From positions 1 to 30,225 of the forward strand of contig DAOLCO010000014.1 in assembly GCA_035327825.1 (NCBI GenBank): a stretch of 30,225 nt of DNA. Direction: 5' to 3'. The notes under the pieces are model-generated. The model did no database searches. It was not told the DNA's origin and worked only from the letters and a program-made list of their open reading frames with translations. Below are positions 1-30,225 of the stretch, piece by piece. This DNA is from Oligoflexia bacterium (lineage in GTDB: Bacteria; Bdellovibrionota_C; UBA2361; SZUA-149; DAOLCO01). The position numbers were made by a program, and so were the translations under genes. Each line of letters begins with the position of its first letter. Position 1 is the stretch's first letter.

Positions 1-257
1 CGTAATAAACGAACCAGTCCCTTCAGGGTAGTCTATACGAAGGGGTTGGGATTGTCTCATAAGGGGATCGCCGGAATAGTATTCTTATTTGATCGGGTTT
101 TCTTCTCTAGTACTCCTGTATGGTTACATTTCGTTATCGCAGAAATTGAGGATGCGTTTCAGACAGGGAGAAATTTTTTAATTATCTGGTGGAACAGCTG
201 ATTGCTTTAATGAGAATTAAAGTTTTGAATGGGGATGTACCTTGAGAATAATAAAAT

Positions 258-3063: not shown

Positions 3064-3086
3064 TTTTGGATTGATAAGTTGAGTAA

Positions 3087-3854: not shown

Positions 3855-3855
3855 T

Positions 3856-5457: not shown

Positions 5458-5461
5458 TTGT

Positions 5462-7033
5462 ATGAAAAAGAAACTTATTGTAACTGGATTTGTTTTTATC
5501 TTGTTGTTGTTTGTTCTTTATTATCTTGAATTCATATCCAGAGAAGTTGAGCTTGATAAAGGTTCAGAGCGGGAAATTTTTCTTTCCCTGATTCCGGCTG
5601 ATAAAATTACCCGGCTCAGATTAATTTCGGGTGATGGCTCTATTGATATTACGAGATCTGAAGCAATTAACATTTCTTCTCCTCTTGTTCATCGTTCCAG
5701 CTGGATTTTAAAAGACCCTTCCTTTGCACCAGCTTCTGATGAGGTTGTTGGAGAGCTTTTAAGTAAAATCATGGAACTAGGTGCTGTTCGGGCTGATATT
5801 GAAGAAGAAGGTATCGGGGATCTTGATGTAGACAGTAATTCTGGAAATCAATATGGCCTTACTCCTCCGGATATGGTTCTGATTATTGACTCGGATGAAG
5901 TTTCAAGGGTTATAAGTTTTGGCTCAAAGAGCAAAATTTCCGGAAAGCGTTTTGTGCAAGTTGAGGGAGACCCTGATCTGTATCTGGGGAGTTTTGATTT
6001 TCCTCGTTATTATTCAAGTATTAGGGAGCGGATCAAGAGCAGGGAAGTTTTAAAAATAGACCCATTTCAGATAGTTGGTATTGATGTTCTGGAAGGTTCC
6101 AGATTTTTCAGATTATATTCTTTTGATTGCTCATCTGGAGAAGATTCATGGAGACTGAAGACGGGCGGAAGTGTTCCTGCAAAAGTTGATGGTGATTTTG
6201 TATTGAGGAAACTTAAAGAGCTGTCTCTATTAAAGGTTCGAAGAATTTTTGAAGATGGTCAAAGCATATATCAATATACTGGTCTTGAATCCCCTTTTTT
6301 AATAATCAATATGGCACTTGATCTCAGGAAGGGCAGGGAGGCCGGGTGTCAACCTGGCACTCCTACTGTTGGTCTAGGTTCGGATTCCAGCAGTCAGGAG
6401 CTGCTTCTTCAGTTTGGAAAAGGTATTGGATTTGAAGTATCTGCTACTTCATCCGGAGCTAATTCAGAAGATAATTTACAGGTTTCGGCTCCGGGGGTTG
6501 TTCCAACCCAGTCTTATTTTCTGAAAATTGGCGGAGAAAGGCGAATTTATGAAGTTGAGAAATCCTTTATTGCTGACTGGCTTCAGGGTGGAGATCATTT
6601 CAGATCGAGAAAACCATTTAATGATCTTTCTGTGGGTAGCATAGAGGAAATTGAGGTTCTTGTACCTGAGTCTGGGTGCACTATTATGGCGACTGGTGAG
6701 TCTGTCTCGGGTTTTTCTTCCAGTCTTCGTGAAATCCAAGATGTTATGTCAAAGTTCAAACTTGATGCTGTGATATTACCCGAAGAACTTGATCTTTATC
6801 CCCCCATAGCTAAAAACGGGATAAGACTTGCTACTGCTGAGGGGTCTTATGCCCTTAGGGAGCGTAGTGCTATTCTTGCTGAAGACTCCGGTGATGGTGC
6901 GGGGATGAGAAGGCCATCGGTTGTGGAAATTGAGAGGCCTTCTGAGGAGATATATTACGGGGTGCTTGGTGGAGATGATATGTCGGGTTTTGACGGTCTT
7001 ATTGGCAAAATCTGCGCTGAAGGGTTAAAGTGA
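5462..7033 (+). CDS. DUF4340-like protein (the usual fourth gene of GldG-type ABC-2 modules); N-terminal TM anchor
   Basis: 523 aa with an N-terminal TM (LIVTGFVFILLLFVLYYL) followed by a large soluble domain. Position and start 5 nt after the GldG stop match the conserved ATPase-permease-GldG-DUF4340 order. Domain call is by context plus general sequence character only. Confidence 0.5.
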   Translation: MKKKLIVTGFVFILLLFVLYYLEFISREVELDKGSEREIFLSLIPADKITRLRLISGDGSIDITRSEAINISSPLVHRSSWILKDPSFAPASDEVVGELLSKIMELGAVRADIEEEGIGDLDVDSNSGNQYGLTPPDMVLIIDSDEVSRVISFGSKSKISGKRFVQVEGDPDLYLGSFDFPRYYSSIRERIKSREVLKIDPFQIVGIDVLEGSRFFRLYSFDCSSGEDSWRLKTGGSVPAKVDGDFVLRKLKELSLLKVRRIFEDGQSIYQYTGLESPFLIINMALDLRKGREAGCQPGTPTVGLGSDSSSQELLLQFGKGIGFEVSATSSGANSEDNLQVSAPGVVPTQSYFLKIGGERRIYEVEKSFIADWLQGGDHFRSRKPFNDLSVGSIEEIEVLVPESGCTIMATGESVSGFSSSLREIQDVMSKFKLDAVILPEELDLYPPIAKNGIRLATAEGSYALRERSAILAEDSGDGAGMRRPSVVEIERPSEEIYYGVLGGDDMSGFDGLIGKICAEGLK

Positions 7034-7113: not shown

Positions 7114-9540
7114 TTGAAGTTGGAATCGTTTTTTGCATTTTTTCGTTTAGTGTTTCGATTTTTTGTGTGGATACTTGTCACAGGCGGAATACTTTCAATT
7201 ATTGTGGGTGGATTTGCGGGGCTATATTTTTATAATCGCCTGAACCGTGATTTACCAAGAATTGAAAAATTAAGTGACTACAAGCCCAAGGCTGTTACCA
7301 GTTTTTATGCCGAAGATGGTACCCTTCTTGTGGAAGTTTGGGACGAAAGACGCTATCCTGTAGCGCTTTCTGAAATACCCCTTCATGTCAAGAATGCTTT
7401 TCTTGCTGCTGAAGATGCCAGCTTTTATGCTCATGGAGGTATTGATTTTCTAAGTATTGTTCGGGCGGCATGGGTAAATCTGACGTCTAAAGCTACAAAG
7501 CAGGGAGCTTCTACGATCACTCAACAGATTGTAAAAGAATTATTATTAAGTCGGGAAAGAACTTATCAAAGAAAACTGAAAGAGGCTCTCCTTTCCTATC
7601 GCCTTGAAAAGTATCTTACAAAAGATGAAATTCTTTCTATTTATTTAAACCAGATTTTCCTTGGTTCTGGTGCTTATGGAATTAAAGCAGCCGCAAAAGT
7701 GCATTTTCACAAGGAGTTGGAGAATGTTTCAATTGCAGAAGCTGCATTTTTGGGAGCTCTTCCCAAGAAGCCAAGCGAGCTTACCAGACCGGCCAATCGT
7801 GAGATGGCGATGAACAGGCAAGCGTATGTACTTAGGCAGCTTCGTGATAAGGGTTTTATTACTGAAGAAGAGTACCGAGTTGCACGTGAAGAAAAGCTGA
7901 CAATCTATCCTCAGGAAGAGGAAAATCTTTTTGCATCTCCATATTTTGCTACTCACTCTGTAAAGCTTGCAGAAGAAATTATACAAAAAGTAAACAGTGA
8001 TTATACCTTGAGAGATCCAGGAGGATTCAAGATTGTTACTACAGTTAATGTCAGGGCTGATAATCTGGCTCAGGAATCACTAAGATTGGGTTTGCTATCT
8101 CTTGATAAAAGACAGGGTTGGCGCGGAGCGCTTGGTAATATAAGGGATGACACTCGAGTACCTCCAAAATGGGATGAGTTAAAGGAGGGCGAGCCTCTTT
8201 CCCTTGGTCGCATATATAGGGCTCGTGTTGTATCTGTTGATCAACCCAGGGGGCGCGTTAGAATCGAGATGGGTGAGTTTAAGGGTGAGATTGATGTTGG
8301 TAATGCAAAATGGGCTTTTTCTTTTGCTGAGCTAGTACCTGGGGCTTCCGACATAAAAAGATCAGTTGTTAATCCTCTGAAAATTTTAAAAATTGGAGAT
8401 ATTATTGAGGTTTCTGTAAAAAAGCGTGAGTCCAAAGAACAGGAATCAAAGCCTGTATATTCTCTTGAGCTTGATCAAACTCCTGCTGTTCAGGGAGCAA
8501 TGGTTGTAATGAATGCCATAACAGGTGAAGTCAAATCAATTATTGGCGGGTTTGATTTTAAAGAAAGCAAGTTTAATCGTGCAACTCAGGGAGATTTGCA
8601 GCCTGGATCATCATTTAAGCCACTGATTTATCTCGCTGCAATTGAAGAGCTAGGATATACGCCTTCTACTATTGTGCCAGATGAGCCAATCAGCTTTCCT
8701 ACGCTTGATGGAGTATGGGCTCCAAAAAATTTCGACCAAAAATTTCTGGGTCCAATTTCTTTTCGCGTTGCTCTTCAAAAATCAAGAAATGTTGTTTCTG
8801 TGTATCTGGTGCAGAAAATCGGGATTGATAAAACTATAAGAAGCGCAAGGCGTCTTGGCATAAGTACACCTATACCCAGAAACATGTCGATCTCTCTTGG
8901 TACCCCCGAGGTCAAAGTTATAGATATGGTCAGATCATATGCTCCGTTTGCTAGTGGTGGTTATCTTCCCGATCTTTTAATAGTTAAAAGTATTTCTGAG
9001 AGGGATGGAAGAGAGATTTATCGTGCAGAGCCAAGGCAGGAAAAGGTTATAGAGCCTGCACCTGCGTTTATTATGGCGCATATGATGAAGGGGGTGATTG
9101 AGAGAGGAACTGCGCAGGTATTAAAAAAGCTTGGAAGACCTGTGGCTGGGAAAACCGGTACTACGAATGATCATATGGATTCCTGGTTCATTGGATATAC
9201 TCCGGACTGGGTTGCTGGGGTTTGGGTTGGTTTTGATTCAAAGAGGAGTTTGGGAAAGGCAGAAACTGGAGGTCGTGTTGCTGCGCCGATTTTTCTTGAT
9301 TTTATGGAGGATTTTTTAGAGGGGACACCCGCTTTGGATTTCATTCCTCCAGATGATGTAGTTCCGGTTTCCGTTAATGTTCATACAGGTGTTCCTGTCC
9401 CACCTGGATCAGAAGGTGCATTTATTGAATATTTTCAAGCGACGGGGGGGCAATATTCTGATATGCTCGGACGGAATAGGGATCCCTATCAGCAGAAATC
9501 ACATGAAGTTGAGGATTATTTGACTAATAGCGATTTTTAG
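7114..9540 (+). CDS. mrcA: Class A penicillin-binding protein (PBP1A; glycosyltransferase GT51 + transpeptidase)
   Basis: N-terminal TM. GT51 motifs EDASFYAHGGID, QGASTITQQIVKELL and RKLKEALLSYRLEKYLTKDEIL. Transpeptidase motifs SSFKP (SxxK) and KTGTT (KTG). 808 aa; an apparent TTG start at 7114. Confidence 0.9.
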   Translation: MKLESFFAFFRLVFRFFVWILVTGGILSIIVGGFAGLYFYNRLNRDLPRIEKLSDYKPKAVTSFYAEDGTLLVEVWDERRYPVALSEIPLHVKNAFLAAEDASFYAHGGIDFLSIVRAAWVNLTSKATKQGASTITQQIVKELLLSRERTYQRKLKEALLSYRLEKYLTKDEILSIYLNQIFLGSGAYGIKAAAKVHFHKELENVSIAEAAFLGALPKKPSELTRPANREMAMNRQAYVLRQLRDKGFITEEEYRVAREEKLTIYPQEEENLFASPYFATHSVKLAEEIIQKVNSDYTLRDPGGFKIVTTVNVRADNLAQESLRLGLLSLDKRQGWRGALGNIRDDTRVPPKWDELKEGEPLSLGRIYRARVVSVDQPRGRVRIEMGEFKGEIDVGNAKWAFSFAELVPGASDIKRSVVNPLKILKIGDIIEVSVKKRESKEQESKPVYSLELDQTPAVQGAMVVMNAITGEVKSIIGGFDFKESKFNRATQGDLQPGSSFKPLIYLAAIEELGYTPSTIVPDEPISFPTLDGVWAPKNFDQKFLGPISFRVALQKSRNVVSVYLVQKIGIDKTIRSARRLGISTPIPRNMSISLGTPEVKVIDMVRSYAPFASGGYLPDLLIVKSISERDGREIYRAEPRQEKVIEPAPAFIMAHMMKGVIERGTAQVLKKLGRPVAGKTGTTNDHMDSWFIGYTPDWVAGVWVGFDSKRSLGKAETGGRVAAPIFLDFMEDFLEGTPALDFIPPDDVVPVSVNVHTGVPVPPGSEGAFIEYFQATGGQYSDMLGRNRDPYQQKSHEVEDYLTNSDF

Positions 9541-9674: not shown

Positions 9675-11978
9675 ATGTTTTCTGCGACCACTGACGAATT
9701 AAGAAGCATGGTATACTATAAGGAAATATCGGCCAGTTTACGTGGATACTTGTCAGGGCTATTGAGGCTCTGGCTTTATATTTTTTCACTAGTATTTTTT
9801 TTAAGCGTTAATTCGCTAGTTGATAATTACCCTCCTTCTATCCGAATCATCTCTTCACTTGCCTATGCTGCCGACAAAAAACCTTCAAAACCTTCAAGTG
9901 GCGGAAAGCGGGTCGTAAAAAAGAAACGAGCACCTGTTTCAAGTGAAGTTTTAACTCCTGAAATCGCGCCAACTCCCATTGGAAGTGGCAAGTCATTTGA
10001 CGATAGGTCCAGTATTGCAAAACCGGTAGATGCAATTCTTGTTCTTGATTCTTCAAGGAGTATGAAGCGTAATGATCCTGAACGACTGAGAGACCAGGGT
10101 GCAAGACTATTCCTTCAGTTTCTTGAACCAGGTGACAGGTTTGCCATTATAGATTTTGCAGAAGAGGCATCGGTACTTTTTCCTTTTACTCCTGTTCAGA
10201 ATACTACTCCAAAAGAAATATCAGATCTCCTTGAATCAATCGAAAATGAAGGAAATTTTACTGATTTTTTAAGTCCTCTGGAGCTTTCCCTTGAGCTTTT
10301 TGAAACTGATCTTCGTCCTGGCTCGGAGAAAGTGATAATTCTTCTTTCTGATGGAGAGATGGATCCTGATCCTGCGGTTGGAGGCAAAAGTGAAAGAACT
10401 GCTATCCTGCTTGATGAGGTCATTCCAAAGCTCTCAAAGCAGAATATTCGTCTTCACTCTCTTGGTTTTAGCAGGGATGCTGATGCCAGAATTCTTAAAT
10501 TAATGTCCTCAAAAGCAGACGGGTTAAGTTGGTATACAAGAGATGTAAATACAGTTCACCGGATATTTTCTGATCTTTTTCTTTCTATAAAAAAACCTCA
10601 GGTTCTTGAGCTTACAAAAGACGGTTTTGAAATTGATAGCAGTACAGAGGAAGCAACATTCTTTGTTAACAGAAAAAACAAGGAAGAGTCAGTTACTGTT
10701 GTTGATCCTCTGGGAAAGGAATTTGTAAATCGTGATTTTCCTTCTGATTGGAAATGGTTTAGGGGAGATTTATTTGATGTAGTTACAATACATTCACCTA
10801 CGCCTGGTGTTTGGGGAATTCGTATTGGTAATGATACCCCCAGTGGTTTTGCAAAGCTGATTTCCAATCTTAAACTTGAACACAGTTGGCCCGGTAGTAT
10901 GATGAGTATTGGGGATGTTGCACTACTAAAAGCCAGACTAACAGAAAATGGATCGGTACTTTCTTCTCCTGAGCTTGCAGGGTTGATTTTCTACTCATTT
11001 AAAATAGTTAACATGTCTACCGGCAAGGTATATCTTCAGGGCAGGCTGAATGAAACGGGAGATGGTGTAGCTGAAGGTACAATAAGCCTAAATGAGGAGG
11101 GTGACTTTAAACTCTTTCTTTCTGTAACCTCCCCTACTTTTACACGTCAGGCTCATATCCCTTTTTCAGTTTCGAGGGGACTTATTTCACTTGAGCATAT
11201 TTCAGCCAATGAATTTACGGGAGCAGGTGATTCCTATCGGGTAGTGCTTCACCCAAATGCGATTAAGCTCAAGGGGCTTGTTGTTGGACTTCTTGCAAAA
11301 TCAGAGAATTCTTCCGAAGAAGTGAAAGCCATGAATATAACAAAAAGCAAAATAAGTGATACCGAGTATGAGGTTCCTCTTGGAAAATTTGCTCCGGGTA
11401 CATACATGGTTTCAGCGGTTGTAAACGGCATGGGAGATGATAAGAAAAAAGTGAGCGCTAAGAGCGAAGAATTGAAAATAGTTATTTCTGAGTCTGATAG
11501 TAAAGCAGATGAGTCTGATTATAACGTAGGCCTTGATGGCCTGGAGAATTTTGAAGAGAAAGAGCCCGAGAAAAAATCTGACTGGCCTTATGGGGTTGGT
11601 GCTATTATATTTTGCTTGATTGTTTCTGCTGGTGCGTCTCGATTTTTCATAAAAAAATCCCTATTAACAAGCGCAAGTACCGTTAAGACAAGAGAGCCAT
11701 ATCAGATGTCAAGTGACTTGGCTTCCAGGCTTGAAGTTATTAAAGAGCGCGTATCGGAAGAAAAACGTCAGGCAAACGAGACAGAGTTGGAACTATTTGC
11801 TGTTCTTCCTGATTTACAAAAAGTTCTTTCTGAAATCATCATGACAAAGCCTGATGAGCCAGGAGAAAGTGTTTCCGTTGGTGGTGATTCACCTGATGAT
11901 GAAACCGGTGTAGATAAGGAGTCAGATTCCCTAACTTCTGGTTCAGTAGAGGAGGCACAGGAAGCAAAAGCAGAGTAG
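9675..11978 (+). CDS. Membrane-anchored von Willebrand factor type A (vWA) domain protein with acidic C-terminal tail
   Basis: MIDAS motif DSSRS in ILVLDSSRSMKRND, followed by ...FAIIDFAEEASVL..., typical of vWA. Hydrophobic N-terminal segment (LWLYIFSLVFFLSV) and a predicted TM near the C-terminus (GVGAIIFCLIVSAGA), then a Glu/Asp-rich tail. The true start may be the internal Met at 9708. Confidence 0.7.
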   Translation: MFSATTDELRSMVYYKEISASLRGYLSGLLRLWLYIFSLVFFLSVNSLVDNYPPSIRIISSLAYAADKKPSKPSSGGKRVVKKKRAPVSSEVLTPEIAPTPIGSGKSFDDRSSIAKPVDAILVLDSSRSMKRNDPERLRDQGARLFLQFLEPGDRFAIIDFAEEASVLFPFTPVQNTTPKEISDLLESIENEGNFTDFLSPLELSLELFETDLRPGSEKVIILLSDGEMDPDPAVGGKSERTAILLDEVIPKLSKQNIRLHSLGFSRDADARILKLMSSKADGLSWYTRDVNTVHRIFSDLFLSIKKPQVLELTKDGFEIDSSTEEATFFVNRKNKEESVTVVDPLGKEFVNRDFPSDWKWFRGDLFDVVTIHSPTPGVWGIRIGNDTPSGFAKLISNLKLEHSWPGSMMSIGDVALLKARLTENGSVLSSPELAGLIFYSFKIVNMSTGKVYLQGRLNETGDGVAEGTISLNEEGDFKLFLSVTSPTFTRQAHIPFSVSRGLISLEHISANEFTGAGDSYRVVLHPNAIKLKGLVVGLLAKSENSSEEVKAMNITKSKISDTEYEVPLGKFAPGTYMVSAVVNGMGDDKKKVSAKSEELKIVISESDSKADESDYNVGLDGLENFEEKEPEKKSDWPYGVGAIIFCLIVSAGASRFFIKKSLLTSASTVKTREPYQMSSDLASRLEVIKERVSEEKRQANETELELFAVLPDLQKVLSEIIMTKPDEPGESVSVGGDSPDDETGVDKESDSLTSGSVEEAQEAKAE

Positions 11979-12001: not shown

Positions 12002-12745
12002 ATGATTTGGATTCTTGTTACTATAGTTATTTATGTTGCTTTTGCCTTGATAGTCTTCTTAAAGATAAGAAGCAGTAAGGGTTCGATCATTGAGACACAG
12101 AAAAAAAATCTGGAAGTTGCTGAAGAAGATCTAGTAAAAATGGAAGAAGTTCTTAAACAGATTTTATCTTTATCTCTTGGTTTAATCAGGAAAGAAGACA
12201 TTCTTGCACTTGATGCCATGCTTGATGATCTTGAGGCGAGTATAGGAGCGGAAAAGGGGCGTTTTGCGATTACTCAGGCAGAGCTTGATTCTGTGGAGAT
12301 TCGCTTAAGAGAGCTTGAAGAGTTAAAGAGAGAGCTTGAAGTAAGCACTATGGATGCCATACGTGAAATTGAAATGCTAAAAGCCCAGGAGCGAGATGTT
12401 TCGAATCAGAATGAAGTAATCAAAGAACAGATTGGATCTGCTAATGACCAGATTGATATACTCCTTGACATGTTTAATGATGATGGAATTGTTACGGAGC
12501 AGTTAAATGGGGCTAGAGCTCAAATGAAGCAAGTGGAAACAAATATTCTGTTTTATGAAGAGGAGGTTGCGAAAATAAATCAGCAATATGTTGTGCTTAA
12601 AAAAGCATACGATGCACTTGATATAGAATACGCGCAGCTTTATGAAAAAAGACAACAGGAACTTGATGGTAAACCAGCGCTAACTGACAGGCCCACAGCT
12701 GCTGATGAAGGCGAAGCTGAAGCTGAAACAGATTCTGCAGAATAG
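12002..12745 (+). CDS. N-terminally membrane-anchored coiled-coil protein (hypothetical)
   Basis: N-terminal TM (MIWILVTIVIYVAFALIVFL), then about 200 aa of heptad-like, E/K/L-rich sequence with an acidic tail. Sits 23 nt after the vWA gene, so likely co-transcribed. Confidence 0.55.
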   Translation: MIWILVTIVIYVAFALIVFLKIRSSKGSIIETQKKNLEVAEEDLVKMEEVLKQILSLSLGLIRKEDILALDAMLDDLEASIGAEKGRFAITQAELDSVEIRLRELEELKRELEVSTMDAIREIEMLKAQERDVSNQNEVIKEQIGSANDQIDILLDMFNDDGIVTEQLNGARAQMKQVETNILFYEEEVAKINQQYVVLKKAYDALDIEYAQLYEKRQQELDGKPALTDRPTAADEGEAEAETDSAE

Positions 12746-12759
12746 AAAATCGCCAAAAT

Positions 12760-12945
12760 CAGTTAGCAATTCAGCCTAATGGGAGTGTTGCGAAACGGCT
12801 TTTTTAAAAATCATGCATTCAAGATTGGAGAAAAAGGGCTTAGGTAAACTTTTTTGTTTTACTCCTTGGGTCTGGTGATTCCGGGGCCATCCGGGTGTTC
12901 GGGCCTGTTTCACAACAGGCCCCTAATGTAAACTTTTATCCCATA
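12760..12945 (+). repeat. Copy 1 of a dispersed intergenic repeat family (conserved 70-nt block + hairpin GGGCCTGTTTCACAACAGGCCC + TAATGTAAACTTTTAT)
   Basis: Aligns with 14490..14760 at roughly 70-80% identity over the shared blocks. Both start ..GGCTTTTTTAAAAATCA.GC.TTCAAGATT.. and end ..TTCGGGCCT.TTT..CAACAGG..TA..TAA.TTTT. The hairpin core recurs at 20073..20120. Confidence 0.7.
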
Positions 12946-13051
12946 GACTGGCCTTTATTTGTCTAGTGGTACTTGTGACTGACCAGCTTGATTGATTAAT
13001 TGTCAGGTGTTCGTTTAAACCACTTTAAATATGTGTAGACTTTATGACCCA

Positions 13052-13085
13052 CCGTTACTGAAGTAACGGCTTTTTTAGGTTTTTT
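13052..13085 (+). terminator. Intrinsic-terminator-like hairpin + T-tract in the 5' leader, ending 1 nt before the Shine-Dalgarno of the 13098 gene (possible attenuator)
   Basis: CCGTTAC tgaa GTAACGG followed by CTTTTTTAGGTTTTTT, then GGAGG (13087-13091) and ATG at 13098. Confidence 0.45.
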
Positions 13086-13097
13086 GGAGGTCTAAAG

Positions 13098-14324
13098 ATG
13101 AACACAAAACTGCTTTATCTGGTATCGATTGCAATTGCCTTGTATTCAGGTGTGGTGTTCGGGCAAAGTGATGAAATTGTCAGATACATTAAAGACCTTG
13201 ATTCCGATAAATTCAGCATTCGTCAGCAGGCTACTCGCAAGTCAATAGAGATTGGGACTCCCGTTATTGACAAGATTGTATTCGCGCAAGAGTCATCTTC
13301 TCTTGAGGTCAAAACCCGTGCGCAATTAATTGAGAAGGAAATCTTGATTCCAATCCTGCTGGAGCCATCTCTCGTGCATTTTGAGGGTTATGCGACGGTA
13401 ACAGAACTTCTGAGCGAAATTAGTCGTCAAACTGGAAATCAAATTGATTTCGATGAATCTGTAAATAATACGATTTGCTTCTGGAGTATTGAGAAAAAGA
13501 CGTTTTGGGAGGCGATAGTCCAGGTCTGTAAGCAGTCAGAAAACACAATTGCAACAGAGAATAACATGAATGGATGGAAAATTGTTCCGGGAGAATTTCA
13601 GGGAGATTATGTTGCTACAAATGAAATAGCTCTTGGCTTTCTATATAGTATTAACGAAATGCCTGATGTTAGAAAAGGGCGTATACTTGCTCAGATGAAT
13701 ATGTTTAGGGTGGTAAAGATACCCCCCGAACAGGGACTTGGTTTTTACTTTCATGTCTTTCTTGAGCCTCGCCTGAGCATTGCATCAGTTTTGAATCAGG
13801 CAGAGCTTCTTGAGTGTAAAGCGGATATTGGTACAAAAATAGGCCCTGCATCAGATGGTAATCCTCAATTTGTTGACGTTATCAACGGAAATAGCAGAAT
13901 TGTTGGAATCTTTTGTGGTCTTTATATGCCGAACAGAAGTCCTTTGATTCTAACTAGGTTGAGTTGCTGTTTTCGTTTTTTATTACTTGGCAACACAACG
14001 GAGATTATCTTTTCTGAGGTTAGTCAGAAAAATCGGCTGTATCACGACTGGATAGAACTTGTGAAAGTTGACTCAACCGAAGATTTTTTTATCTATACAT
14101 TCAGAGCGAGTACCAAGCGCCTAATGCATTTTGAAGTTGTTGCAAAATTAGATGAAATCTACAGAACCGATTATTCAGTAAGCTCTGGGATCAATATTTA
14201 TTCAGTGGTTCTGGCAAGAGATGGCAGACTGGAATTTCCGCCTATAAAGCTGAGGGCGCACAATTTTATACAATCAGTCATCGTAGAATTAAACTTCAAA
14301 AACATGCCTATTCCTGCCTGGTAA
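13098..14324 (+). CDS. Secreted hypothetical protein with N-terminal HEAT/PBS-lyase-like repeat
   Basis: Good SD (GGAGG, 6 nt spacer). Signal peptide MNTKLLYLVSIAIALYSGVVFG|QSD. DLDSDKFSIRQQATRKSIEIGTPVIDKIV resembles a HEAT-type repeat. The remainder is unrecognised. 408 aa. Confidence 0.65.
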   Translation: MNTKLLYLVSIAIALYSGVVFGQSDEIVRYIKDLDSDKFSIRQQATRKSIEIGTPVIDKIVFAQESSSLEVKTRAQLIEKEILIPILLEPSLVHFEGYATVTELLSEISRQTGNQIDFDESVNNTICFWSIEKKTFWEAIVQVCKQSENTIATENNMNGWKIVPGEFQGDYVATNEIALGFLYSINEMPDVRKGRILAQMNMFRVVKIPPEQGLGFYFHVFLEPRLSIASVLNQAELLECKADIGTKIGPASDGNPQFVDVINGNSRIVGIFCGLYMPNRSPLILTRLSCCFRFLLLGNTTEIIFSEVSQKNRLYHDWIELVKVDSTEDFFIYTFRASTKRLMHFEVVAKLDEIYRTDYSVSSGINIYSVVLARDGRLEFPPIKLRAHNFIQSVIVELNFKNMPIPAW

Positions 14325-14414
14325 AGTTTATTTGTCTACTCATGCTGCTGATGATTTGGTAATTTCAATCTTGCTATACTCATGTTCTTAAAGAAAACCT
14401 ACAGAACACTGGTC

Positions 14415-14444
14415 GGGTCGGATGGAGTTAATTCTATCCGACCC
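14415..14444 (+). terminator. Hairpin (GGGTCGGAT ... ATCCGACCC) about 90 nt downstream of the 13098..14324 gene; possible terminator
   Basis: 9-bp perfect stem with a 12-nt loop. A T-rich run (TTGGTTTTT) follows after about 12 nt rather than immediately, so terminator function is uncertain. Confidence 0.3.
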
Positions 14445-14489
14445 ACTTTGAGTTATTGGTTTTTAATTATATAAGCAACGGTGGATCTA

Positions 14490-14760
14490 CTTAGCTACTT
14501 GTTCTGTTGGTATTGCTAAATGGCTTTTTTAAAAATCAGGCCTTCAAGATTTAATAAGCAGGCATTAGGCAGACTTTTCTTGTTTTATTCCTTGTATACA
14601 GTGCATTTTGTACAGTGCATTGTATGCTGTGCATTTTTGAACCTAAGTTCCGAAAATGCCCCTTCAGATAGTTAACGGGTCATACGGACATCGGCGAGCT
14701 CTCAGTCTAGTTCGCATTCGGGCCTTTTTTGCAACAGGTTCTATATAAGTTTTTCTATTT
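14490..14760 (+). repeat. Copy 2 of the dispersed intergenic repeat family, with a 120-nt insert containing three CAGTGCATT sub-repeats
   Basis: Shares the GGCTTTTTTAAAAATCAGGCCTTCAAGATT...GTTTTATTCCTT block and the TTCGGGCCTTTTTTGCAACAGGTTCTATATAAGTTTTT block with copy 1, in the same orientation. Confidence 0.7.
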
Positions 14761-14824
14761 ATGAAATAGGTTTTAAGAATTTCAGATTTATAATAATGGC
14801 AAGAGATAATAAGGAGATTTTCAT

Positions 14825-16609
14825 TTAGCTGTTATAAGAAGTAAAAGATGCAACATGTTTTTTATACGGACTTTTGAAATTCTTAATTTGATATAAGTGG
14901 TAGTTATCTTTCTCCATTAGATGAAGTCCTCCTGACGTACTTAGAAACTTAACATATTTGGAATCATTAATTATTTCTCTTATAGCACGTATAAGAATTT
15001 TAGGATTTCTAATCAGAGTAAGCCAGGCATCGCGAATTGCAGCCTCCAGAGCCCTTACTCCGCTGTTATTGCTTGATAGGGCAAGGCTACCAACAAGAAC
15101 GTTTCTTCGGTATCTTTTATCATCGTCAAAATCAAGCTCAAGTTCGCAGCCATTAAATAGTTGGTTAAAATTATAGTAAGGAAACCACTGAATTGCCTTA
15201 ACGTTTTTTTCGCCACTCAAAAAATACGATGTGATTTCATGTGGTGCAGCAAAGGTGAGTTTTGAGTTTCCTTTGGACACTCGCCCATCTTTTAGTAGCT
15301 CCCTATAATATTGCAAAGAACTACTAACCCCATCACCTAACACCAGATGATCTCCAGACTTAAGCGAATCAGATTGCTTCGGGTTCGATTGCTCTCTGCA
15401 TTTACTAACTATCTGAAAGGAAATGTCCGGCATAGACATAACTGCGGTATAGTTTCTAGAGATAGTCTCACATAGTAACTGCGAAAGATGCCCTGTTCCA
15501 AGAATGAATAACTCGCCAGGATGCAGGGAGTACTGCCTCATTTTCTGAAGAATCTCCCCTGCATGGACATATGAGTAGTTGGCTCTAATCGGAAAACCAC
15601 ATATTCGCTCAAGGTAGAATATAAGGGACAATGACCCGATACAGGAAGCGGGCAGGTTGATAATAACCTCGCCACAAAAAGCCTTATCAAGTTCCTTTTG
15701 AATAGCTTTTGAGCTCATGCCCAGGTTTTCACTAGCTCCAATATAACCCCCATTTATGGTAAAAAACTTATCGCTATTTCCAGTGTAGTATTTAAAAATA
15801 GGATCATGAGCCAGCTCCAGCAGTGTTGACTGACTGGAACCTTGGCGGAAAATATGCCTGGTTTTCAAGACCGCTGACAGCTCGTGATAAACCATACCAA
15901 ACAATAATTTTTGGTAACATTCATCGTCAAAGGGAGGTGGATGCGAATTGTCAACTTGCAGTATCTCCATTTCATCATTTGCGAATGCTCTCTTTGTAGT
16001 CTTATATTGTATTTTATCTACGCGTATGATTTTATTATTAATGAATTTCTTTTTAGATATCCGACCATGCTCAAGCATTTCTGCTAAGCACTGTAGTGCC
16101 CCAGGGGCACTTACCTTTATATCATCCAGATATACATCAATGTTAGAGTAGGGCAGATTCTTTGAAGTGACGTATATAGTTACCGGTCCAGGACGTTTCC
16201 GCTCAGGATTATTTCTTTCAAAGATACTCCTCGCCCTGCAACCTCCTTTTTGGTCAATACCAAACATGTTCAGAAGCCAAGGAGATTGCCTGGCCAGAGC
16301 ATAGTCGAACGAAGCGGCCGGTGTTTTTCCTTCTCCCTGTAAACCAATGATGGTAGTCAGTTTCCCATCCGATTTAAGATTTCCAATCACAACCCTCACA
16401 AGGCAAATGGCCATTGCCTTTACTGAGGAGGTCCAGTTAAAAGTGTTACTTGCCATTGTAGCAGAGAACGTTTTGCCACGAACTGAATGCCACTTTTCAC
16501 CAGAATCTCCGGGGGTAAAGATAACCGCATCAAGCTCGGGGGATTTGCCACTTAAAAACCTGAGTTCGATTTTGGGGTCGGGCATGGTTTTCTCGTAATT
16601 TAATCGCAA
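14825..16609 (-). CDS. Large hypothetical protein (594 aa) immediately downstream of, and co-oriented with, the HTH-NACHT gene; candidate partner or effector
   Basis: The ORF is open to a TTG at 16609; the first ATG is at 16585 (MPDPKIEL...). It contains a P-loop-like segment (TTIIGLQGEGKTPAAS), a possible Walker-B-like IDVYLDDI, and two Rossmann-like GxGxxS segments (ELFILGTGHLSQLL, HLVLGDGVSSSL). I recognise no family with confidence. Confidence 0.6.
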   Translation of the reverse strand: MRLNYEKTMPDPKIELRFLSGKSPELDAVIFTPGDSGEKWHSVRGKTFSATMASNTFNWTSSVKAMAICLVRVVIGNLKSDGKLTTIIGLQGEGKTPAASFDYALARQSPWLLNMFGIDQKGGCRARSIFERNNPERKRPGPVTIYVTSKNLPYSNIDVYLDDIKVSAPGALQCLAEMLEHGRISKKKFINNKIIRVDKIQYKTTKRAFANDEMEILQVDNSHPPPFDDECYQKLLFGMVYHELSAVLKTRHIFRQGSSQSTLLELAHDPIFKYYTGNSDKFFTINGGYIGASENLGMSSKAIQKELDKAFCGEVIINLPASCIGSLSLIFYLERICGFPIRANYSYVHAGEILQKMRQYSLHPGELFILGTGHLSQLLCETISRNYTAVMSMPDISFQIVSKCREQSNPKQSDSLKSGDHLVLGDGVSSSLQYYRELLKDGRVSKGNSKLTFAAPHEITSYFLSGEKNVKAIQWFPYYNFNQLFNGCELELDFDDDKRYRRNVLVGSLALSSNNSGVRALEAAIRDAWLTLIRNPKILIRAIREIINDSKYVKFLSTSGGLHLMEKDNYHLYQIKNFKSPYKKHVASFTSYNS

Positions 16610-16804
16610 TTAAAAATTATAGCCAAACACTGCAGTTTGAGTTGTGAGTAGTGGCGTGCGTCAAATACGAAGTTACCGTTTTCTGAAAAGCTAATCAAGT
16701 GCTAAATGTAATTATTGAAAGCTCTAACACTTTGATATTACTATGATCTAGTGGTGGAAAGTCAAAATTTTATAATGTCTATATGGAATTTGAACCTTAG
16801 TGTT

Positions 16805-19708
16805 TTATAAAGGTAAGTCTTTCTTCATAGAAACTGGCGCCAGCATGGACAGCCTTCTTAGTACATTAAAGATATGGTCATACATCGGAGCTCCATACAT
16901 CGAAAAGGGACGAGTATAGTATCGCTCATGTTCTTTATCTAGGGTTCTTTCTGCCTCAAGTTTAAGTAATTTTCGAAAGCACTCCATCAGATGATAGTAT
17001 TGATCTTGAGAAAGGAGCCTTGGAATATCCAGATAAAAATTATAAATAATAGACAGGCGATTACCAAAGGTTATCAGGTCGAATTTGTCTGATTCGCCCA
17101 AGTTAAAAATATAATTGCAACAAGCCTTCAAGCTGTACTTTTCGTTAAGCGGTAAAATTTGTGTATAAAAATCCACTTCCCTGTCAGAATCCGGCAATGA
17201 ACTATGTTTTCTGCCAAGCAAGGAAGCTAGCACCTTAACCTCGCTTCTGTCCTCCGGTACTGTCTGCAAAAGCATATCAAAGCGACCAATCAGGGATTCT
17301 CTTAATTCAATGGGAATGAGATGAGGATGAGTAAATGCTACCTTCAAAAATTGGTGAAAATGCTGTAGATGAGGATAATCGAAATAGATATCGTCAAAGC
17401 ACTCATTCACAATTTTTGAAGTCTTTTGGACTATTCCCTGCATATCCTTGAAGTAAAACAAAGACTCCTGGGTTACAACGAGAGTTGTAAGAACATCCCA
17501 AAGATGCGTACTATCTACACTTTGAGACCTGACGCTATTTTCAAAATCATTTAAAATAAGATTAGCAAATTCATTAATTGAATTGCGAACCCGACTAATA
17601 TCTGCCGACCTGGAATCACTTCTTCGAGAATCATCGTCCAGGGAGAAAATCCTACCTACCTGTCTTATGCTCCAGAATAGACGTCTCATCGAAAGCCTCT
17701 CCTTGGAAGTAATCAAACGAACATCGGTTCTAAATAGGGATATTCCATTGGCTATCTCATCAACAAGAAAATCGCTTCTCATTCCTAACTTTGCTAGCGA
17801 AGAGACAAGTCTCCACTTTTTCTCAATGGGCAGCGAATCAACGTCACCACGCTGAATCTTTGTATAAGCTTGAAGAAAAAACTCTCTCAGTGAAGGAGAG
17901 CCACAATATTCTCCAAGAATATGAAAACTCTCTCGAAGCTCTGTCTCAAAACTGGAGTTCAGGCAGCAGTTAATGAATGGCACAATTATATTATCCCAAA
18001 ACTCTTCAAAATTATAACTTGCTATTGCTCGGGTAGCTGAAAAAAGATTGAAGTGAGTGATGCGTTCCGTCAAATCAAAACCTAAGGCATCATCTACTTT
18101 TAGTAAATCAAGGACGATTTCTCTACCAAGTTGTTCTTCATATTTTCGATCGCTGCGACCAAGTTCCTGAATACAAATAGGCACGATGTCATGCCATACG
18201 GGCAGCCGAAATCGCTCAAGGAGGATATTTTTAATGGACCCCAGATCTCCTATCAGTGCCTTCGCAAAATAAAAGATTCCAAATATATCATCCAGAAATA
18301 CAAATTCTTCAATGACTTTTACTGATCTACTTCGGTGATCAAATGAACGTCGAAGATAAAGAGGACCAATAGAGGTTTTGCTCTCCAGCAGAGCAAGGAG
18401 TCCCGCATTCTCCAAATTTTCAATATCAACCCCCTTACTTTTTAAGAAATCCTCCCAGACTGCCTGTAAATCGCCTCGAGAAAATGCTGGTACTTTATTA
18501 AGATGATAATTTTCCTGTTTTAAATACCAAGATGCGAGATGAACAAGAAACTGACGCTTGCTAAGCCAACTAAATTCACCATACCGCTCTGCTCGGGTTA
18601 GTGTTGTCTCGTAGTAGGTAATTCTTCTTTCGGACCAACTTCGCTCCAATATCTCACAACAAGCATCACATAGTCCCGAAACTTCCTGGAAAGGACGAAT
18701 ACCAAAAGCAGAATATAGCGTTGTTAATAGGTGAAAAAGCAACGGCCACTTTGCAAGTTTGAAGAGAACGTCATTAGATTGAACCATCAACCAGAACTCA
18801 TCAGCATCACTTGCAACCTCCCATGGCCACCTTTGACAGCCTTCAATCATCTGTCGCATGCTCCATGAATCCATGAGCCAGGTAACAAATCCGTTATAAT
18901 GTCTATCTCGAGAATAAAATGCCTCTGGTTGACCAGTAATAATTAACTTGGATCCAGTTAAGCGAACACTACTCTCGTAAATCCTTTGTAAATAAGCCAG
19001 TGTTTCAGCTCTTTTGTAATTACAATTTATTTCATTAAGTCCATCAAAAAGAAGAAGTGCATTACCACGAGAAATGCATTGATCGAAGAATATTCCAAGC
19101 TGTTGCTGAGACCCTTTAAATCCAATATTTATAAAATAGCTTGCAAGTGATGTTGATAGAGAGGCAGGATTGAGTTGGAAATTTTCCAGCGAAACAAGTA
19201 TTGGTACAAATCCTGATCGAGAAGGCGAAACATTGGATAGATTCTCAGTTTCGAGCGCAAGCGTCCGCAGAAAAAAGCTTTTCCCTGATCCCATCGGGCC
19301 CGAGAGCAGAACGGCTCTGTTAGCTGGATCTTCAATGAATTCTTTTAAAAAAGCTTCCCATTTTAATCGGGTTCCGTCTTCCTTAACAAGTTCAGGTGCT
19401 ACCCAGATATCTTTTGCGAGACTGGCAACTGCTGGAACCTTGGGCATAAGGAAGCGAGAATCCCACCACTTGATAAGCTCGCGCATCCAGATAATAAAAT
19501 TCCCTTTATCCTGGGGTATCGGCTGGACTAGTGATTCCACACTTAACCCGTAGAGGTTGGCAAGCTTTTTTGCAATCTCCTGGTTGAGTGGTTTGTGTCC
19601 TAACTCAAGAGCGGAAAGGTATGGATGAGTAACTCCTATACTTGAAGCAGCATTTCTTAGTGAAAGATTTGAATTCTCTCGCGCATCTCTCAGGGTAATT
19701 GTCTGCAT
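16805..19708 (-). CDS. STAND-class NTPase with N-terminal XRE-type helix-turn-helix, central NACHT domain and long C-terminal alpha-helical sensor-like region
   Basis: HTH: ITLRDARENSNLSLRNAASSIGVTHPYLSALELGHKPLNQEIAKKLANLYGLSVESL. NACHT motifs: Walker A VLLSGPMGSGKSFFL, the post-P-loop FVPILVSLENF, Walker B ALLLFDGLNEI, and the sensor-1-like KLIITGQPEAF. About 600 aa of helical sequence follow. The frame is open to a TTG at 19723; the first ATG at 19708 gives MQTITLRDAREN, a typical HTH protein N-terminus. Confidence 0.8.
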   Translation of the reverse strand: MQTITLRDARENSNLSLRNAASSIGVTHPYLSALELGHKPLNQEIAKKLANLYGLSVESLVQPIPQDKGNFIIWMRELIKWWDSRFLMPKVPAVASLAKDIWVAPELVKEDGTRLKWEAFLKEFIEDPANRAVLLSGPMGSGKSFFLRTLALETENLSNVSPSRSGFVPILVSLENFQLNPASLSTSLASYFINIGFKGSQQQLGIFFDQCISRGNALLLFDGLNEINCNYKRAETLAYLQRIYESSVRLTGSKLIITGQPEAFYSRDRHYNGFVTWLMDSWSMRQMIEGCQRWPWEVASDADEFWLMVQSNDVLFKLAKWPLLFHLLTTLYSAFGIRPFQEVSGLCDACCEILERSWSERRITYYETTLTRAERYGEFSWLSKRQFLVHLASWYLKQENYHLNKVPAFSRGDLQAVWEDFLKSKGVDIENLENAGLLALLESKTSIGPLYLRRSFDHRSRSVKVIEEFVFLDDIFGIFYFAKALIGDLGSIKNILLERFRLPVWHDIVPICIQELGRSDRKYEEQLGREIVLDLLKVDDALGFDLTERITHFNLFSATRAIASYNFEEFWDNIIVPFINCCLNSSFETELRESFHILGEYCGSPSLREFFLQAYTKIQRGDVDSLPIEKKWRLVSSLAKLGMRSDFLVDEIANGISLFRTDVRLITSKERLSMRRLFWSIRQVGRIFSLDDDSRRSDSRSADISRVRNSINEFANLILNDFENSVRSQSVDSTHLWDVLTTLVVTQESLFYFKDMQGIVQKTSKIVNECFDDIYFDYPHLQHFHQFLKVAFTHPHLIPIELRESLIGRFDMLLQTVPEDRSEVKVLASLLGRKHSSLPDSDREVDFYTQILPLNEKYSLKACCNYIFNLGESDKFDLITFGNRLSIIYNFYLDIPRLLSQDQYYHLMECFRKLLKLEAERTLDKEHERYYTRPFSMYGAPMYDHIFNVLRRLSMLAPVSMKKDLPL

Positions 19709-20072
19709 ACTTGATAGTTTCAAAATATAAAAGATGGTTTTTATTTTTAGACTTTTTTGATCTCAGTAGAACAGTAAAAAACGTAATTGCGAATTGAATG
19801 AGCAATTACAATTAATTTAAAGACAAAAAGGAGAGCCTAAATAGTTAAGACTAGATCTGGCACCTTATTAACAATACTTGTCTAAGAGGCTTCCGTTTTC
19901 TGAAAACAAGTTACAATTATGATTAAAGTCTCGATTTTGTCAATTTTAACTCTATAAAATTTTATTTCTCTAAAATTTTAATACCCTAAATTTAAATATT
20001 CAGAACCCGTATCCAATGGGCCCGTATCTATGGGGGCTGGTTCAGTTTTAGGATATCTTAATATATTAAATA

Positions 20073-20120
20073 GGGCTTGTTTCAAAACAGGCCCCAAGGA
20101 AATTTTTATAATAAAGATAG
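20073..20120 (+). repeat. Copy 3 (hairpin core only) of the dispersed repeat: GGGCTTGTTTCAAAACAGGCCCC AAGGAAATTTTTAT
   Basis: Same orientation and about 80% identity to the hairpin-plus-tail segment of copies 1 and 2. It lies in the AT-rich region upstream of the HTH-NACHT gene. Confidence 0.55.
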
Positions 20121-20319: not shown

Positions 20320-20691
20320 ATGACTACAAAAATGACAAATGCAGCTGTTGGTTCTGCAGTTCAGGCTTTAGCCAATTTTGAAGCAGGAAGAGTTCAATCT
20401 CCTTCTCGGCCTGAAGAAAATGTTCTTCAGGCTTTAAATAATATTTCAAGTCCACCCTCCAGTCACAAGCCTGCACCAATGGAAAAATTACCCGAGCTAC
20501 GTCAGGGGAATTCGGGTAAGCCAAAGAAACCAGGAATCGGAAAGCCAAAAAATCCAGCTCAGATTCGTTCTCAGGTACTTGATCACGCAAGGCAAACTGG
20601 GGGACGACTTGAAGGTCTGTACGAAGCCGGAAAAGAGCAAAGAAGGAATTTTCTTTCTAATGCCAGAGATTTTTTCAGGGGAATTTTTTAG
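20320..20691 (+). CDS. Small low-complexity hypothetical protein (123 aa; Pro/Lys/Gly-rich)
   Basis: Strong SD (AGGAG, 7-nt spacer). The sequence is disordered-looking (KPKKPGIGKPKNP). No family recognised. Confidence 0.5.
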   Translation: MTTKMTNAAVGSAVQALANFEAGRVQSPSRPEENVLQALNNISSPPSSHKPAPMEKLPELRQGNSGKPKKPGIGKPKNPAQIRSQVLDHARQTGGRLEGLYEAGKEQRRNFLSNARDFFRGIF

Positions 20692-20715: not shown

Positions 20716-21927
20716 TTATTTTGTTGTGCCAATTCTCTTTCTCGAATCTTGAATCATTGAAACTTCGGCCAAATCGGGGACTGGCTCAAATTCAGCATTT
20801 AATTCCTTAAGACTGCTCACGGGTACTTCTTTAGAGTCCGTGAGCGGAAAGGGAACCATTTTCTTGGAAACGGGTTTTGTTCTTTGGGCAAGGTAAATCC
20901 CAAGTGTTCCAAGAGAAAAAAGAAGGGTGAGTAATTTGGCGCCATGGGTAAATCTGAGTTTCCAGGTTATAACAATAAGGGCAAGGTTAAATAAAACAAG
21001 ACAGATGCTTAACCTTCCATGGGTCCATCCTCTTCTTAGAAGGAGATGATGGACATGATTCTTTTCTGCAGTAAAAGGTGATTTTCCACTAAACAGGCGA
21101 AGTGTAAACACCCGAATGGCATCAAAAAGTGGCACAAAAAGTATAACCATTGCCAGTATGGGGGCGCTTGAAGGCAACATGATATCCCTAAATCTATCAC
21201 TGCCCGCAACTTCAATGAATTTTATTGCAAGAATTGAGGAAATTAACCCAAGAAGAAGCGACCCTGTGTCGCCCATGAATATTCGGGCTGGAGGCAGGTT
21301 GTAAATTAAAAATGCAATTAAACTTCCAAGCATTGAAAATGAAATCACTGCATAAGTATGTACTCCGGCCCAGAAGAAAAATAAACCAAAAGTGGCCATG
21401 CAGAGAATGCCAAAAAGAGCACATAGGCTGTCAACGCCATCAATGAGGTTAAAAGCATTAATTATAAAAATTATGGTAAGCATTGAAAAAACGATGACCA
21501 GTGCCGGGGGGATTTGATAGAGACCAAAAAGACCATAAAAACTTGTGACCTCAAGATTTAATTTGAACACAATAATTCCTGCGGCAATTACTTGCGCTAT
21601 GAACTTTCTGGAAGCGCTTACGCCTACAATATCGTCCTTAACTCCCAGAAAGAATATTATTAATGAGGCTGCGACAATACTTGAAAGGGTACCATCGCTG
21701 ACTTCTGGCCAAAGCATACAAAGGCCCATAAAGAAACCAGCAAAGATTGCTATGCCCCCAAGAGAAGCGATAGGTTTTGAGTGAATTTTTCTTGATTCAG
21801 GTTCATCAACCAGTTTTTTTTTGTGCGCTACTGCAATAATTACCGGGAGTCCTCTTAGAGTTACAATGAACGAAACGACCGCAGAGAAAATCATCAGGAA
21901 AGATTGAGTTGAAATTTCTGATACCAT
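20716..21927 (-). CDS. wecA: Undecaprenyl-phosphate sugar-1-phosphate transferase of the MraY/WecA (GT4 polyprenyl-phosphate N-acetylhexosamine-1-P transferase) family
   Basis: 403 aa polytopic membrane protein. It has the hallmark INAFNLIDGVDSL motif and the (V/L)GDTGS-type motif (IFMGDTGSLLLG). Its size fits WecA/WbpL rather than MraY. Confidence 0.8.
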   Translation of the reverse strand: MVSEISTQSFLMIFSAVVSFIVTLRGLPVIIAVAHKKKLVDEPESRKIHSKPIASLGGIAIFAGFFMGLCMLWPEVSDGTLSSIVAASLIIFFLGVKDDIVGVSASRKFIAQVIAAGIIVFKLNLEVTSFYGLFGLYQIPPALVIVFSMLTIIFIINAFNLIDGVDSLCALFGILCMATFGLFFFWAGVHTYAVISFSMLGSLIAFLIYNLPPARIFMGDTGSLLLGLISSILAIKFIEVAGSDRFRDIMLPSSAPILAMVILFVPLFDAIRVFTLRLFSGKSPFTAEKNHVHHLLLRRGWTHGRLSICLVLFNLALIVITWKLRFTHGAKLLTLLFSLGTLGIYLAQRTKPVSKKMVPFPLTDSKEVPVSSLKELNAEFEPVPDLAEVSMIQDSRKRIGTTK

Positions 21928-23155: not shown

Positions 23156-23196
23156 AAAAACTAGTGGGCCACAATTTTTGTGGCCCACTAGTTTTT
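23156..23196. terminator. Bidirectional rho-independent terminator between convergent genes
   Basis: Perfect 14-bp stem CTAGTGGGCCACAA / TTGTGGCCCACTAG with a 3-nt loop, flanked by AAAAA on the left and TTTTT on the right. Confidence 0.85.
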
Positions 23197-27729: not shown

Positions 27730-27864
27730 ACCCGACTGTCATAGGGCCGATATCTTGATGGTTGTGGTTAATTAGCACATAACTACTAGTGATTTTCCCT
27801 GTATAGATAATGATACGTTAGTGTGCTAACTCTTTTGTAGTTGAACCATGCTGGAGGGTAATCT

Positions 27865-30224: not shown

Positions 30225-30225
30225 T
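30169..30225. repeat. Tandem 12-nt repeat (GGGGTGACTGTA)n, at least 4.75 copies, truncated by the window end
   Basis: A degenerate first copy GCGGTGACTGTA at 30169, three perfect copies, then a partial fifth. In frame within the partial minus-strand CDS it encodes (TPTV)n. Confidence 0.9.

Follow-up and report, generated by a model that had tools for sequence, protein, structure and literature searches.

A two-module, non-coding repeat in intergenic DNA of an uncultured Oligoflexia lineage

Mosaic intergenic repeats such as BOX of Streptococcus pneumoniae and the bacterial interspersed mosaic elements (BIMEs) of Escherichia coli are modular, number about 100 copies or more and are assembled from stably structured modules. 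Here we describe a repeat of two modules, A and H, in a 30,225-nt metagenome contig (ENA ERZ794932, NODE_493; this whole stretch is called the window below) from a metagenome-assembled genome of Oligoflexia (Bdellovibrionota), an uncultured lineage. The A/H repeats are real, non-coding and without match in other sampled genomes. They resemble BOX and BIMEs in being short and non-coding, in having separable modules with variable internal parts, in lying between genes of any relative orientation and in including one stem-loop module. They differ in number, with two or three copies seen and at least one more inferred, in the lack of structure in the larger module, A, and in showing no Rfam similarity.

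Other families of short repeats share further features with this locus. Like the repetitive extragenic palindromic (REP) sequences and REPINs mobilized by RAYT proteins, module H is palindromic (~22 nt), rich in GC and located in intergenic DNA, here of a 40% GC genome. Unlike them, all three H copies lie on the + strand rather than in inverted doublets, their heads read TTCGGGCC, TTCGGGCC and ATAGGGCT instead of GTAG, and no RAYT was identified in the 41 kb of this genome that could be reached. The combined A+H unit, at ~165-255 nt, recalls miniature inverted-repeat transposable elements (MITEs) such as the Correia element of Neisseria, being intergenic, non-coding and possibly able to affect neighbouring transcription, but it has neither terminal inverted repeats nor a recognizable target-site duplication, and its copies are just ~80% identical. 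As with attC sites in integrons and CALIN arrays, direct same-orientation repeats 1725 nt apart surround a promoterless-looking orphan open reading frame (ORF); here, in contrast, the 41 kb hold no integrase, the palindromic R''-L''/L'-R' organization is missing, long untranslated spacers follow the sites and the next unit lies on the opposite strand. The A/H repeat fits BIMEs, BOX and MITEs in lifestyle yet fails several defining features of each. Because block A is not palindromic, the units lack terminal inverted repeats, the H copies form no inverted doublets and neither a RAYT nor any transposase or integrase was found, we assign it only to the broad class of short interspersed intergenic repeats, and do so tentatively, at slightly less than even confidence.

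Module A is an AT-rich block of about 115 nt present in two copies (Table 1). A repeat finder aligns 12785-12860 with 14510-14585 at 78% identity across 76 nt without gaps, and gapped alignment, which opens two indels of 3 nt and 1 nt, extends the match to the full copies at ~80% identity. In local alignment the copies score 87, whereas 200 shuffles reach 27 at most. A near-invariant 34-nt core, AAAYGGCTTTTTTAAAAATCAKGCMTTCAAGATT, differs at three positions between the copies (AAACGGCTTTTTTAAAAATCATGCATTCAAGATT and AAATGGCTTTTTTAAAAATCAGGCCTTCAAGATT); it is followed by 13 variable nt and then by ~40 nt at ~85% identity (TTAGG.A.ACTTTT.TTGTTTTA.TCCTTG). The longest exact run common to both copies is 17 nt. 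An initial annotation of the window had described a 70-nt block opening with GGCTTTTTTAAAAATCA; the repeat itself is borne out, but it begins ~35 nt before that sequence and is correspondingly longer.

On neither strand does the RNA fold of block A surpass that of shuffled sequence (z-scores, calculated against shuffled sequence, of -0.3 to +1.9). On the + strand, copies 1 and 2 give -25.6 kcal/mol (z = -0.29) and -16.5 kcal/mol (z = +1.88), and the - strand is no better, with z = +0.21 for copy 1. The module does hold a conserved AATC-N10-GATT inverted repeat. Several functional readings of the block were tried and rejected. One reading frame gives AFLKI..SR..K..LG.LF in both copies, but a coding role is contradicted by the 1-nt frameshift indel between them, by a missing start codon in copy 1 and by mismatches distributed 2/4/5 over codon positions 1/2/3, with no third-position bias. 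An intrinsic terminator is contradicted by upstream mini-hairpins that are weak (-9.8 and -6.3 kcal/mol; z ~-0.4) and that fall 4-5 nt short of the T-run, a T6A5 tract. A promoter and terminator scan found no sigma-70-like promoter in module A on either strand, and by eye no consensus for sigma-70, sigma-54, sigma-28, sigma-32 or extracytoplasmic function (ECF) factors suits the core of both copies; the best sigma-70-like hexamers, TTCAAG-17-TAGGTA/TAGGCA, lack the conserved final T.

Module H is a stem-loop with an A/T-rich tail, which in copy 1 ends TTTTAT. The repeat finder groups its three copies at 12901-12923, 14720-14742 and 20073-20095. Stem-loops 1 and 2 (12898-12919 and 14717-14738) match at 19 of 22 positions, colinear with block A, and score 29 (null maximum 27). 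Stem-loops 1 and 3 are alike over 39 nt (12901-12939 and 20073-20109), with a score of 42 against a null maximum of 28, and the likeness reaches ~16 nt past the stem into the tail. The initial annotation is thus confirmed in its coordinates for the repeat copies, including a third, hairpin-only copy (20073-20120 there, 20073-20112 here), and in its placement of them relative to the genes, with block A and stem-loop scores above the null. Copies 1 and 3 of module H fold stably (-17.4 kcal/mol, z = -2.38, and -13.5 kcal/mol, z = -2.57), whereas copy 2 barely folds (-6.5 kcal/mol, z = -0.14). Folding, suggested with that annotation, accordingly finds structure in H copies 1 and 3 and, on either strand of block A, none beyond that of shuffled sequence. 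A stable stem-loop, as its hairpin block and its likening of the repeat to structured REP or BIME elements would require, is present in those two H copies but neither in H copy 2 nor in module A, and its alternative of MITE remnants is not supported, as no terminal inverted repeats were found.

Variation within the H stem points, weakly, to a strand. Pairing on the + strand is kept in 26 of 27 cells across the three copies, with no compensatory double changes. Each of the three one-sided changes produces a G.U or U.G pair, for which the - strand equivalent would be an A.C mismatch; this is weak evidence, from three events only, for a role of the stem as RNA or single-stranded DNA of the + strand. 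T-runs start 7-10 nt downstream of the stems, and the terminator scan lists none of the three stem-loops as an intrinsic terminator. Its sole match in an H region, at 14710-14723 followed by CTTTTTT, is a separate weak stem of 5 bp, to which H copy 2 contributes its 5' arm. The suggestion of duplicated terminator-promoter modules is therefore not upheld, as no sigma-70-like promoter or canonical terminator coincides with the modules. Two unrelated contigs from JGI metagenomes contain the exact H stem-loop, there with dissimilar flanks and followed by a T-run in the manner of an ordinary terminator, so the hairpin alone is not diagnostic of the family. Separately, a 10-bp perfect GC-rich hairpin, TTCGGGCCTT-GTTTTT-AAGGCCCGAA, lies at 4037-4062 within the GldG-like coding region; its first 9-10 nt (TTCGGGCCT) are common to stem-loop copies 1 and 2, which could be chance.

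The arrangement of the modules is summarized in Table 1. Both A+H units keep the order A then H in the same orientation, with a spacer of 20 nt in copy 1 and 113 nt in copy 2; this constant order with a variable spacer marks the repeat as modular, and the solo H shows that the modules are separable. Three tandem copies of TACAGTGCATT(TT)G at ~14597-14640, in the copy 2 insert, jointly form a long imperfect hairpin. The 408-aa gene lies alone between the two units, and the solo H follows ~5.3-5.4 kb further on. Copy 1 occupies a gap between co-directional + strand genes (247-aa and 408-aa), copy 2 a convergent gap between the 408-aa gene (+) and the 586/594-aa gene (-), and copy 3 a divergent gap of 596 nt between the HTH-STAND gene (-) and the 123-aa gene (+). 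Three sites with three gene geometries speak against one dedicated regulatory function. H copies 1 and 3 sit 175 and 225 nt upstream of the starts of the 408-aa and 123-aa genes, respectively.

Table 1. Repeat modules, neighbouring signals and genes in the window. Bit scores refer to model R1 for module A and to a covariance model for module H.
Feature	Position	Strand	Remarks
Module A copy 1	12762-12877	+	starts 17 nt past the stop codon of the 247-aa gene; 115 bits
Core of module A copy 1	12793-12826	+	34 nt, AAACGGCTTTTTTAAAAATCATGCATTCAAGATT
Module H copy 1	12898-12941	+	9-bp perfect GC-rich stem, GGGCCTGTT-TCAC-AACAGGCCC, at 12901-12922; 58.8 bits
Module A copy 2	14488-14603	+	112 bits
Core of module A copy 2	14518-14551	+	34-mer AAATGGCTTTTTTAAAAATCAGGCCTTCAAGATT; inferred shared de Bruijn node, Logan break point
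Variable A-H insert of copy 2	14604-14716	+	113 nt
Module H copy 2, degenerate	14717-14760	+	TTCGGGCCTTTTTTGCAACAGGTTC; two G.U pairs, one mismatch; 50.8 bits
Module H copy 3, solo	20073-20112	+	without module A; GGGCTTGTT-TCAA-AACAGGCCC, tail ends TTTTTAT; 52.8 bits
Canonical intrinsic terminator	13052-13075	+	CCGTTAC-TGAA-GTAACGG + CTTTTTT (7-bp stem + T6)
13-bp stem-loop	14415-14444	+	-23.6 kcal/mol, z = -5.4
ABC transporter/GldG-like/DUF4340 cluster	2356-7033	+	
PBP1A	7114-9540	+	
VWA protein	9675-11978	+	
247-aa coiled-coil protein	12002-12745	+	identical to NCBI PKA63_07755 [Oligoflexia bacterium]
408-aa signal-peptide protein	13098-14324	+	between the two A+H units
586/594-aa protein	14825-16609	-	no family assignment
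HTH_3 + NACHT/STAND protein	16805-19723	-	
123-aa ORF	20320-20691	+	
GT4 glycosyltransferase	20716-21927	-	followed by more envelope/polysaccharide genes

Searches of wider collections returned no further member of the family. A composite block-A pattern had no match in 185,579 GTDB species representatives, and neither this pattern nor the stem-loop had any in IMG/VR. A 20-mer from the core matched 25 GTDB representatives singly, in unrelated phyla, and these were rejected as family members, because their flanks resemble block A only at an essentially random level (15-47% identity) and several of the matches fall in seemingly conserved orthologous coding regions. Rfam gave no match over the window at gathering thresholds, and no tRNA was found; within 12700-14900 at E <= 1 the single Rfam match was a spurious miRNA (E = 0.89). 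In the literature on Bdellovibrio intergenic repeats and on the SRA runs, no matching account was found.

Evidence for a further copy comes from the assembly graph. Logan contigs are built with k = 31, contain 31-mers that are distinct within an accession and go unreported below 150 bp (PMC12424806). Contigs L002 (SRR2107179, from 8547) and L003 (SRR2107178, from 11337) both stop at 14547, and L018 (SRR2107179) begins at 14522; all three match the window exactly. Their overlap of 26 nt is shorter than k-1 and, as 31-mers are distinct, four of them (14518-14548 to 14521-14551) must form a separate 34-nt node. This node branches on both sides, as is typical of a sequence that occurs in two or more contexts. 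Module A copy 1 is not the partner, because it has three mismatches to the 34-mer and contigs cross it unbroken. The node ends at positions that distinguish copy 1 from copy 2 as well (12792/14517 and 12827/14552), as is expected of a family with a conserved core.

Other causes of the break fit less well. A single-variant bubble would make the left contig stop before the right one began, contrary to the overlap, and two runs would not share a coverage gap to the very base. A close co-occurring strain is an unlikely source of the node, because Logan contigs extend through conserved genes for 6-13 kb without interruption. Collectively, the graph geometry indicates that at least one more copy of the core very probably exists elsewhere in the same community. 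The repeat put forward in the initial annotation as a dispersed family is accordingly very probably something beyond a two-copy local duplication, although the 41 kb hold no further copy. A second break of the same kind lies at 27721-27774, where L018 (end inferred at 27750) and L007 (start 27745) overlap by 6 nt; this implies a shared node of 54 nt, that is, another short repeat with a partner outside the window.

We interpret modules A and H as a decaying, lineage-specific, non-coding mosaic intergenic repeat of the short interspersed class, and put the probability of this reading at roughly 0.45. The copies would be old relics, diverged to ~80% identity, of an element of the BIME, BOX or MITE kind that may persist where it is tolerated, namely in intergenic DNA; such persistence would explain why the copies seem to "delimit" genes. 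If active at all, the unstructured module A would most likely be a protein-binding site in duplex DNA, and module H may work at the RNA level, as a + strand stem-loop that helps to form 3' ends or to stabilize transcripts.

A number of observations weigh against this interpretation. The copies seen, two of module A and three of module H, all lie inside 7.4 kb, and BLASTN-short, a sequence-only block-A model and the H covariance model found none in the other ~34 kb, neither in the rest of the window nor in the 9.5 kb to its right (contig L005) or the 141 nt to its left (contig L008) of the same genome. The extra copy is inferred from assembly-graph geometry rather than observed, and the roles suggested for A in binding and for H as RNA are conjectural. 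An inverted-repeat search of each intergenic region (seed 6) found no terminal inverted repeats pairing the unit ends, no target-site duplication is visible at the approximate unit boundaries set by the two copies, and no transposase was found near the modules. The identity between copies is low, with no sign of recent mobility, and a gene fragment at the assembly break on the left end of the window, described below, matches no transposase family. If copies turn out to be spread through the genome, the family would be the first interspersed repeat described from this little-known, uncultured Oligoflexia lineage and a potential marker of genome plasticity, cause of assembly breaks or regulatory element. 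On present evidence it is a small lineage-restricted repeat of limited wider significance, with no demonstrated function or mobility.

An unlikely alternative, though the best placed of those we weighed, is that each unit is a repeated transcription unit or regulatory module, with a promoter or operator in A and H as its 3' stem-loop. The transcript's start would fall within CTTTTYTTGTTTTAYTCCTTG, a conserved, T-rich segment with an anti-Shine-Dalgarno-like CUCCUU/UUCCUU. The units would then form a family of small RNA genes, or copy 1 would provide the 408-aa gene with a 5' leader that ends in the attenuator-like terminator at 13052-13075. All copies lie on the + strand, like the transcription of the 247-aa and 408-aa genes, the G.U-only variation of the H stem favours + strand RNA, and the position of H copies 1 and 3 ahead of + strand genes is in keeping with such a role. 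The lack of structure in module A and its conserved AATC-N10-GATT repeat fit a DNA control region. The terminator itself lies 22 nt before the ATG of the 408-aa gene, abutting its GGAGG ribosome-binding site, and has the 13-mer AACGGCTTTTTTA in common with the core of copy 1. Such a position is sensible only with a regulated leader or an upstream RNA gene, and points either to control of the 408-aa gene by read-through or attenuation or to an upstream RNA gene with its end here. Against transcription units stand the absence of a sigma-70-like promoter from module A on both strands, the by-eye hexamers without their final T, the distance of the H stems from their T-runs in stem-loops that are not called as terminators, and the lack of a supporting Rfam match even at E <= 1. 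Copy 2, moreover, sits in the convergent gap with no + strand gene downstream. The stem-loop at 14415-14444 is probably the real terminator of the 408-aa gene and lies upstream of module A copy 2, which places that copy outside the 408-aa transcription unit.

Somewhat less likely again is that the repeats are the relic of one local event, for example entry of the 408-aa gene by Campbell-type or illegitimate insertion, with duplication of the intergenic region that received it. On this reading the likeness of the third stem-loop, a terminator-like hairpin, would be coincidence, and neither a dispersed family nor a function would exist. In keeping with such an event, the A+H direct repeats bracket exactly one orphan gene, their ~80% identity and 17-nt longest exact run fit neutral decay of one duplication, the 41 kb contain no other copy, and the JGI contigs show that hairpins of this sort can arise independently. 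The 34-nt node shared in two independent runs speaks against it, as does the likeness of H copies 1 and 3, which includes the non-stem tail and exceeds the null. Two more specific candidates in this direction were rejected: a 12-mer, TTTATTTGTCTA, found at 12954 and 14327, is not significant as an insertion duplication (score 24, equal to the null 95th percentile), and a tandem segmental duplication is contradicted by the unrelatedness of the 408-aa and 586-aa proteins and by the opposite strand of the 586-aa gene.

Comparison with relatives bears on whether the repeats bound mobile cassettes. The nearest homologues of the 247-aa protein have 72% identity (on a 997-nt contig) and otherwise at most 61%, the collections searched hold no close strain, and block A was not found in the 95 nt past the stop codon of the 72%-identical orthologue. 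Synteny was compared in three relatives with usable contigs (L013, L015 and L016; 57-65% amino-acid identity over the aligned stretch). L013 keeps the ABC/GldG/DUF4340/PBP1A genes and then the 247-aa gene, and L015 and L016 keep PBP1A/.../VWA and then the 247-aa gene. To its right the relatives diverge, with SPL/SecA in L013 and DUF218/HTTM in L015 and L016, and the 408-aa, 586-aa, STAND, 123-aa, GT4 and GFO genes are absent from all three contigs. The synteny break coincides with the first repeat. As the right flank is also unconserved, no insertion with two conserved flanks is defined, and the earlier proposal that the repeats partition an accessory segment is not borne out by the relatives, which differ wholly right of the 247-aa gene, with no pattern of conserved flanks around a variable middle. 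Same-species contigs traversing the region all match the window exactly, showing no presence/absence polymorphism.

One of these relatives carries a repeat of its own. L015 (JGI Ga0645785_00710), a transposase-rich contig, has a 54-nt near-perfect palindrome, ATACCCCTATTAGTAT...ATACTAATAGGGGTAT, in two copies that are 89% identical; that at 7514-7567 is intergenic and that at 19682-19735 overlaps a 42-aa ORF at the contig end. This palindrome is REP/MITE-like and distinct from modules A and H, and shows that elements of such a kind occur in the lineage.

It is improbable that A and H are site-specific recombination sites, attC/CALIN-like or other, that capture and shuffle cassettes of orphan genes; recombination sites that shuffle accessory cassettes had also been proposed initially. 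Same-orientation sites do stand at successive gene boundaries, ~1.7 and 5.4 kb apart, the genes that they bracket are orphan or without family assignment, and synteny with relatives stops exactly at the first site; position is, however, the only positive evidence. No recombinase or integrase gene is called among the genes of the 41 kb. Whole-gap and unit folds, to which no attC-specific covariance model was applied, do not pair A with H into an attC-like bulged hairpin. The second "cassette" would consist of two large opposite-strand genes with module H alone at its far boundary, no polymorphism is seen, and GC content shows no discontinuity, staying flat at ~0.40 through the region with dips confined to intergenic gaps. 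Least probable of all is a gene-capture system of Oligoflexia, integrase-independent or with its recombinase encoded elsewhere, that would use A/H as boundary sites to insert or exchange orphan genes, such as the 408-aa gene and the 586-aa/HTH-STAND pair, beside the conserved envelope operon.

The bracketed genes themselves have few relatives. The 408-aa protein is an orphan: a search of 5.8 billion proteins returned it alone, and the closest of its remote homologues has 32% identity. The 586-aa protein has no match in Pfam, NCBIfam, PADLOC or PHROG, and matches of the STAND protein are limited to its generic HTH and P-loop parts. A defence-island label for this pair was rejected, as PADLOC was significant only for the generic HTH/P-loop and PHROG was uninformative. 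Within the divergent promoter region of the HTH-STAND and 123-aa genes, a tandem 15-mer (CCCGTATCCAATGGG / CCCGTATCTATGGGG) at 20007-20036 is a possible operator for the HTH protein. Further right, the GFO/IDH and 494-aa genes, which are convergent, are separated by a textbook bidirectional terminator, a 19-bp perfect stem with A5/T5 flanks at 23156-23196 that has no relation to the repeat family.

Both ends of the window have features of their own. On the left, a - strand gene starting at 68 (window 1-106; L008 11931-12177) opens MRQSQPLRIDYPEG...YAYTIFGSHDHP, and every assembly breaks at it, Logan contigs of both runs at 77 and ENA contigs at 1 and -140, a pattern that points to an element that is variable or present in several copies. 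Pfam (PF01797 included), NCBIfam and PDB gave no match for the gene, and its one homologue (P0121, 76% identity) is unannotated; its identification as a Y1/RAYT fragment, which rested on a by-eye resemblance to HUH Y1 transposases, is unsupported by family matches. On the right (30168-30225; L005 9573-9596), a 12-nt tandem repeat, GGGGTGACTGTA, encodes VTPT in a 489-aa AlbA_2/Fic-like_C gene. The unit is present in 2 exact copies in a 98.8-kb MEGAHIT contig and in 4-5 or more in two SPAdes contigs, which end inside the array. This array, either a variable-number repeat or an assembly artefact, is the cause of the window's right end.

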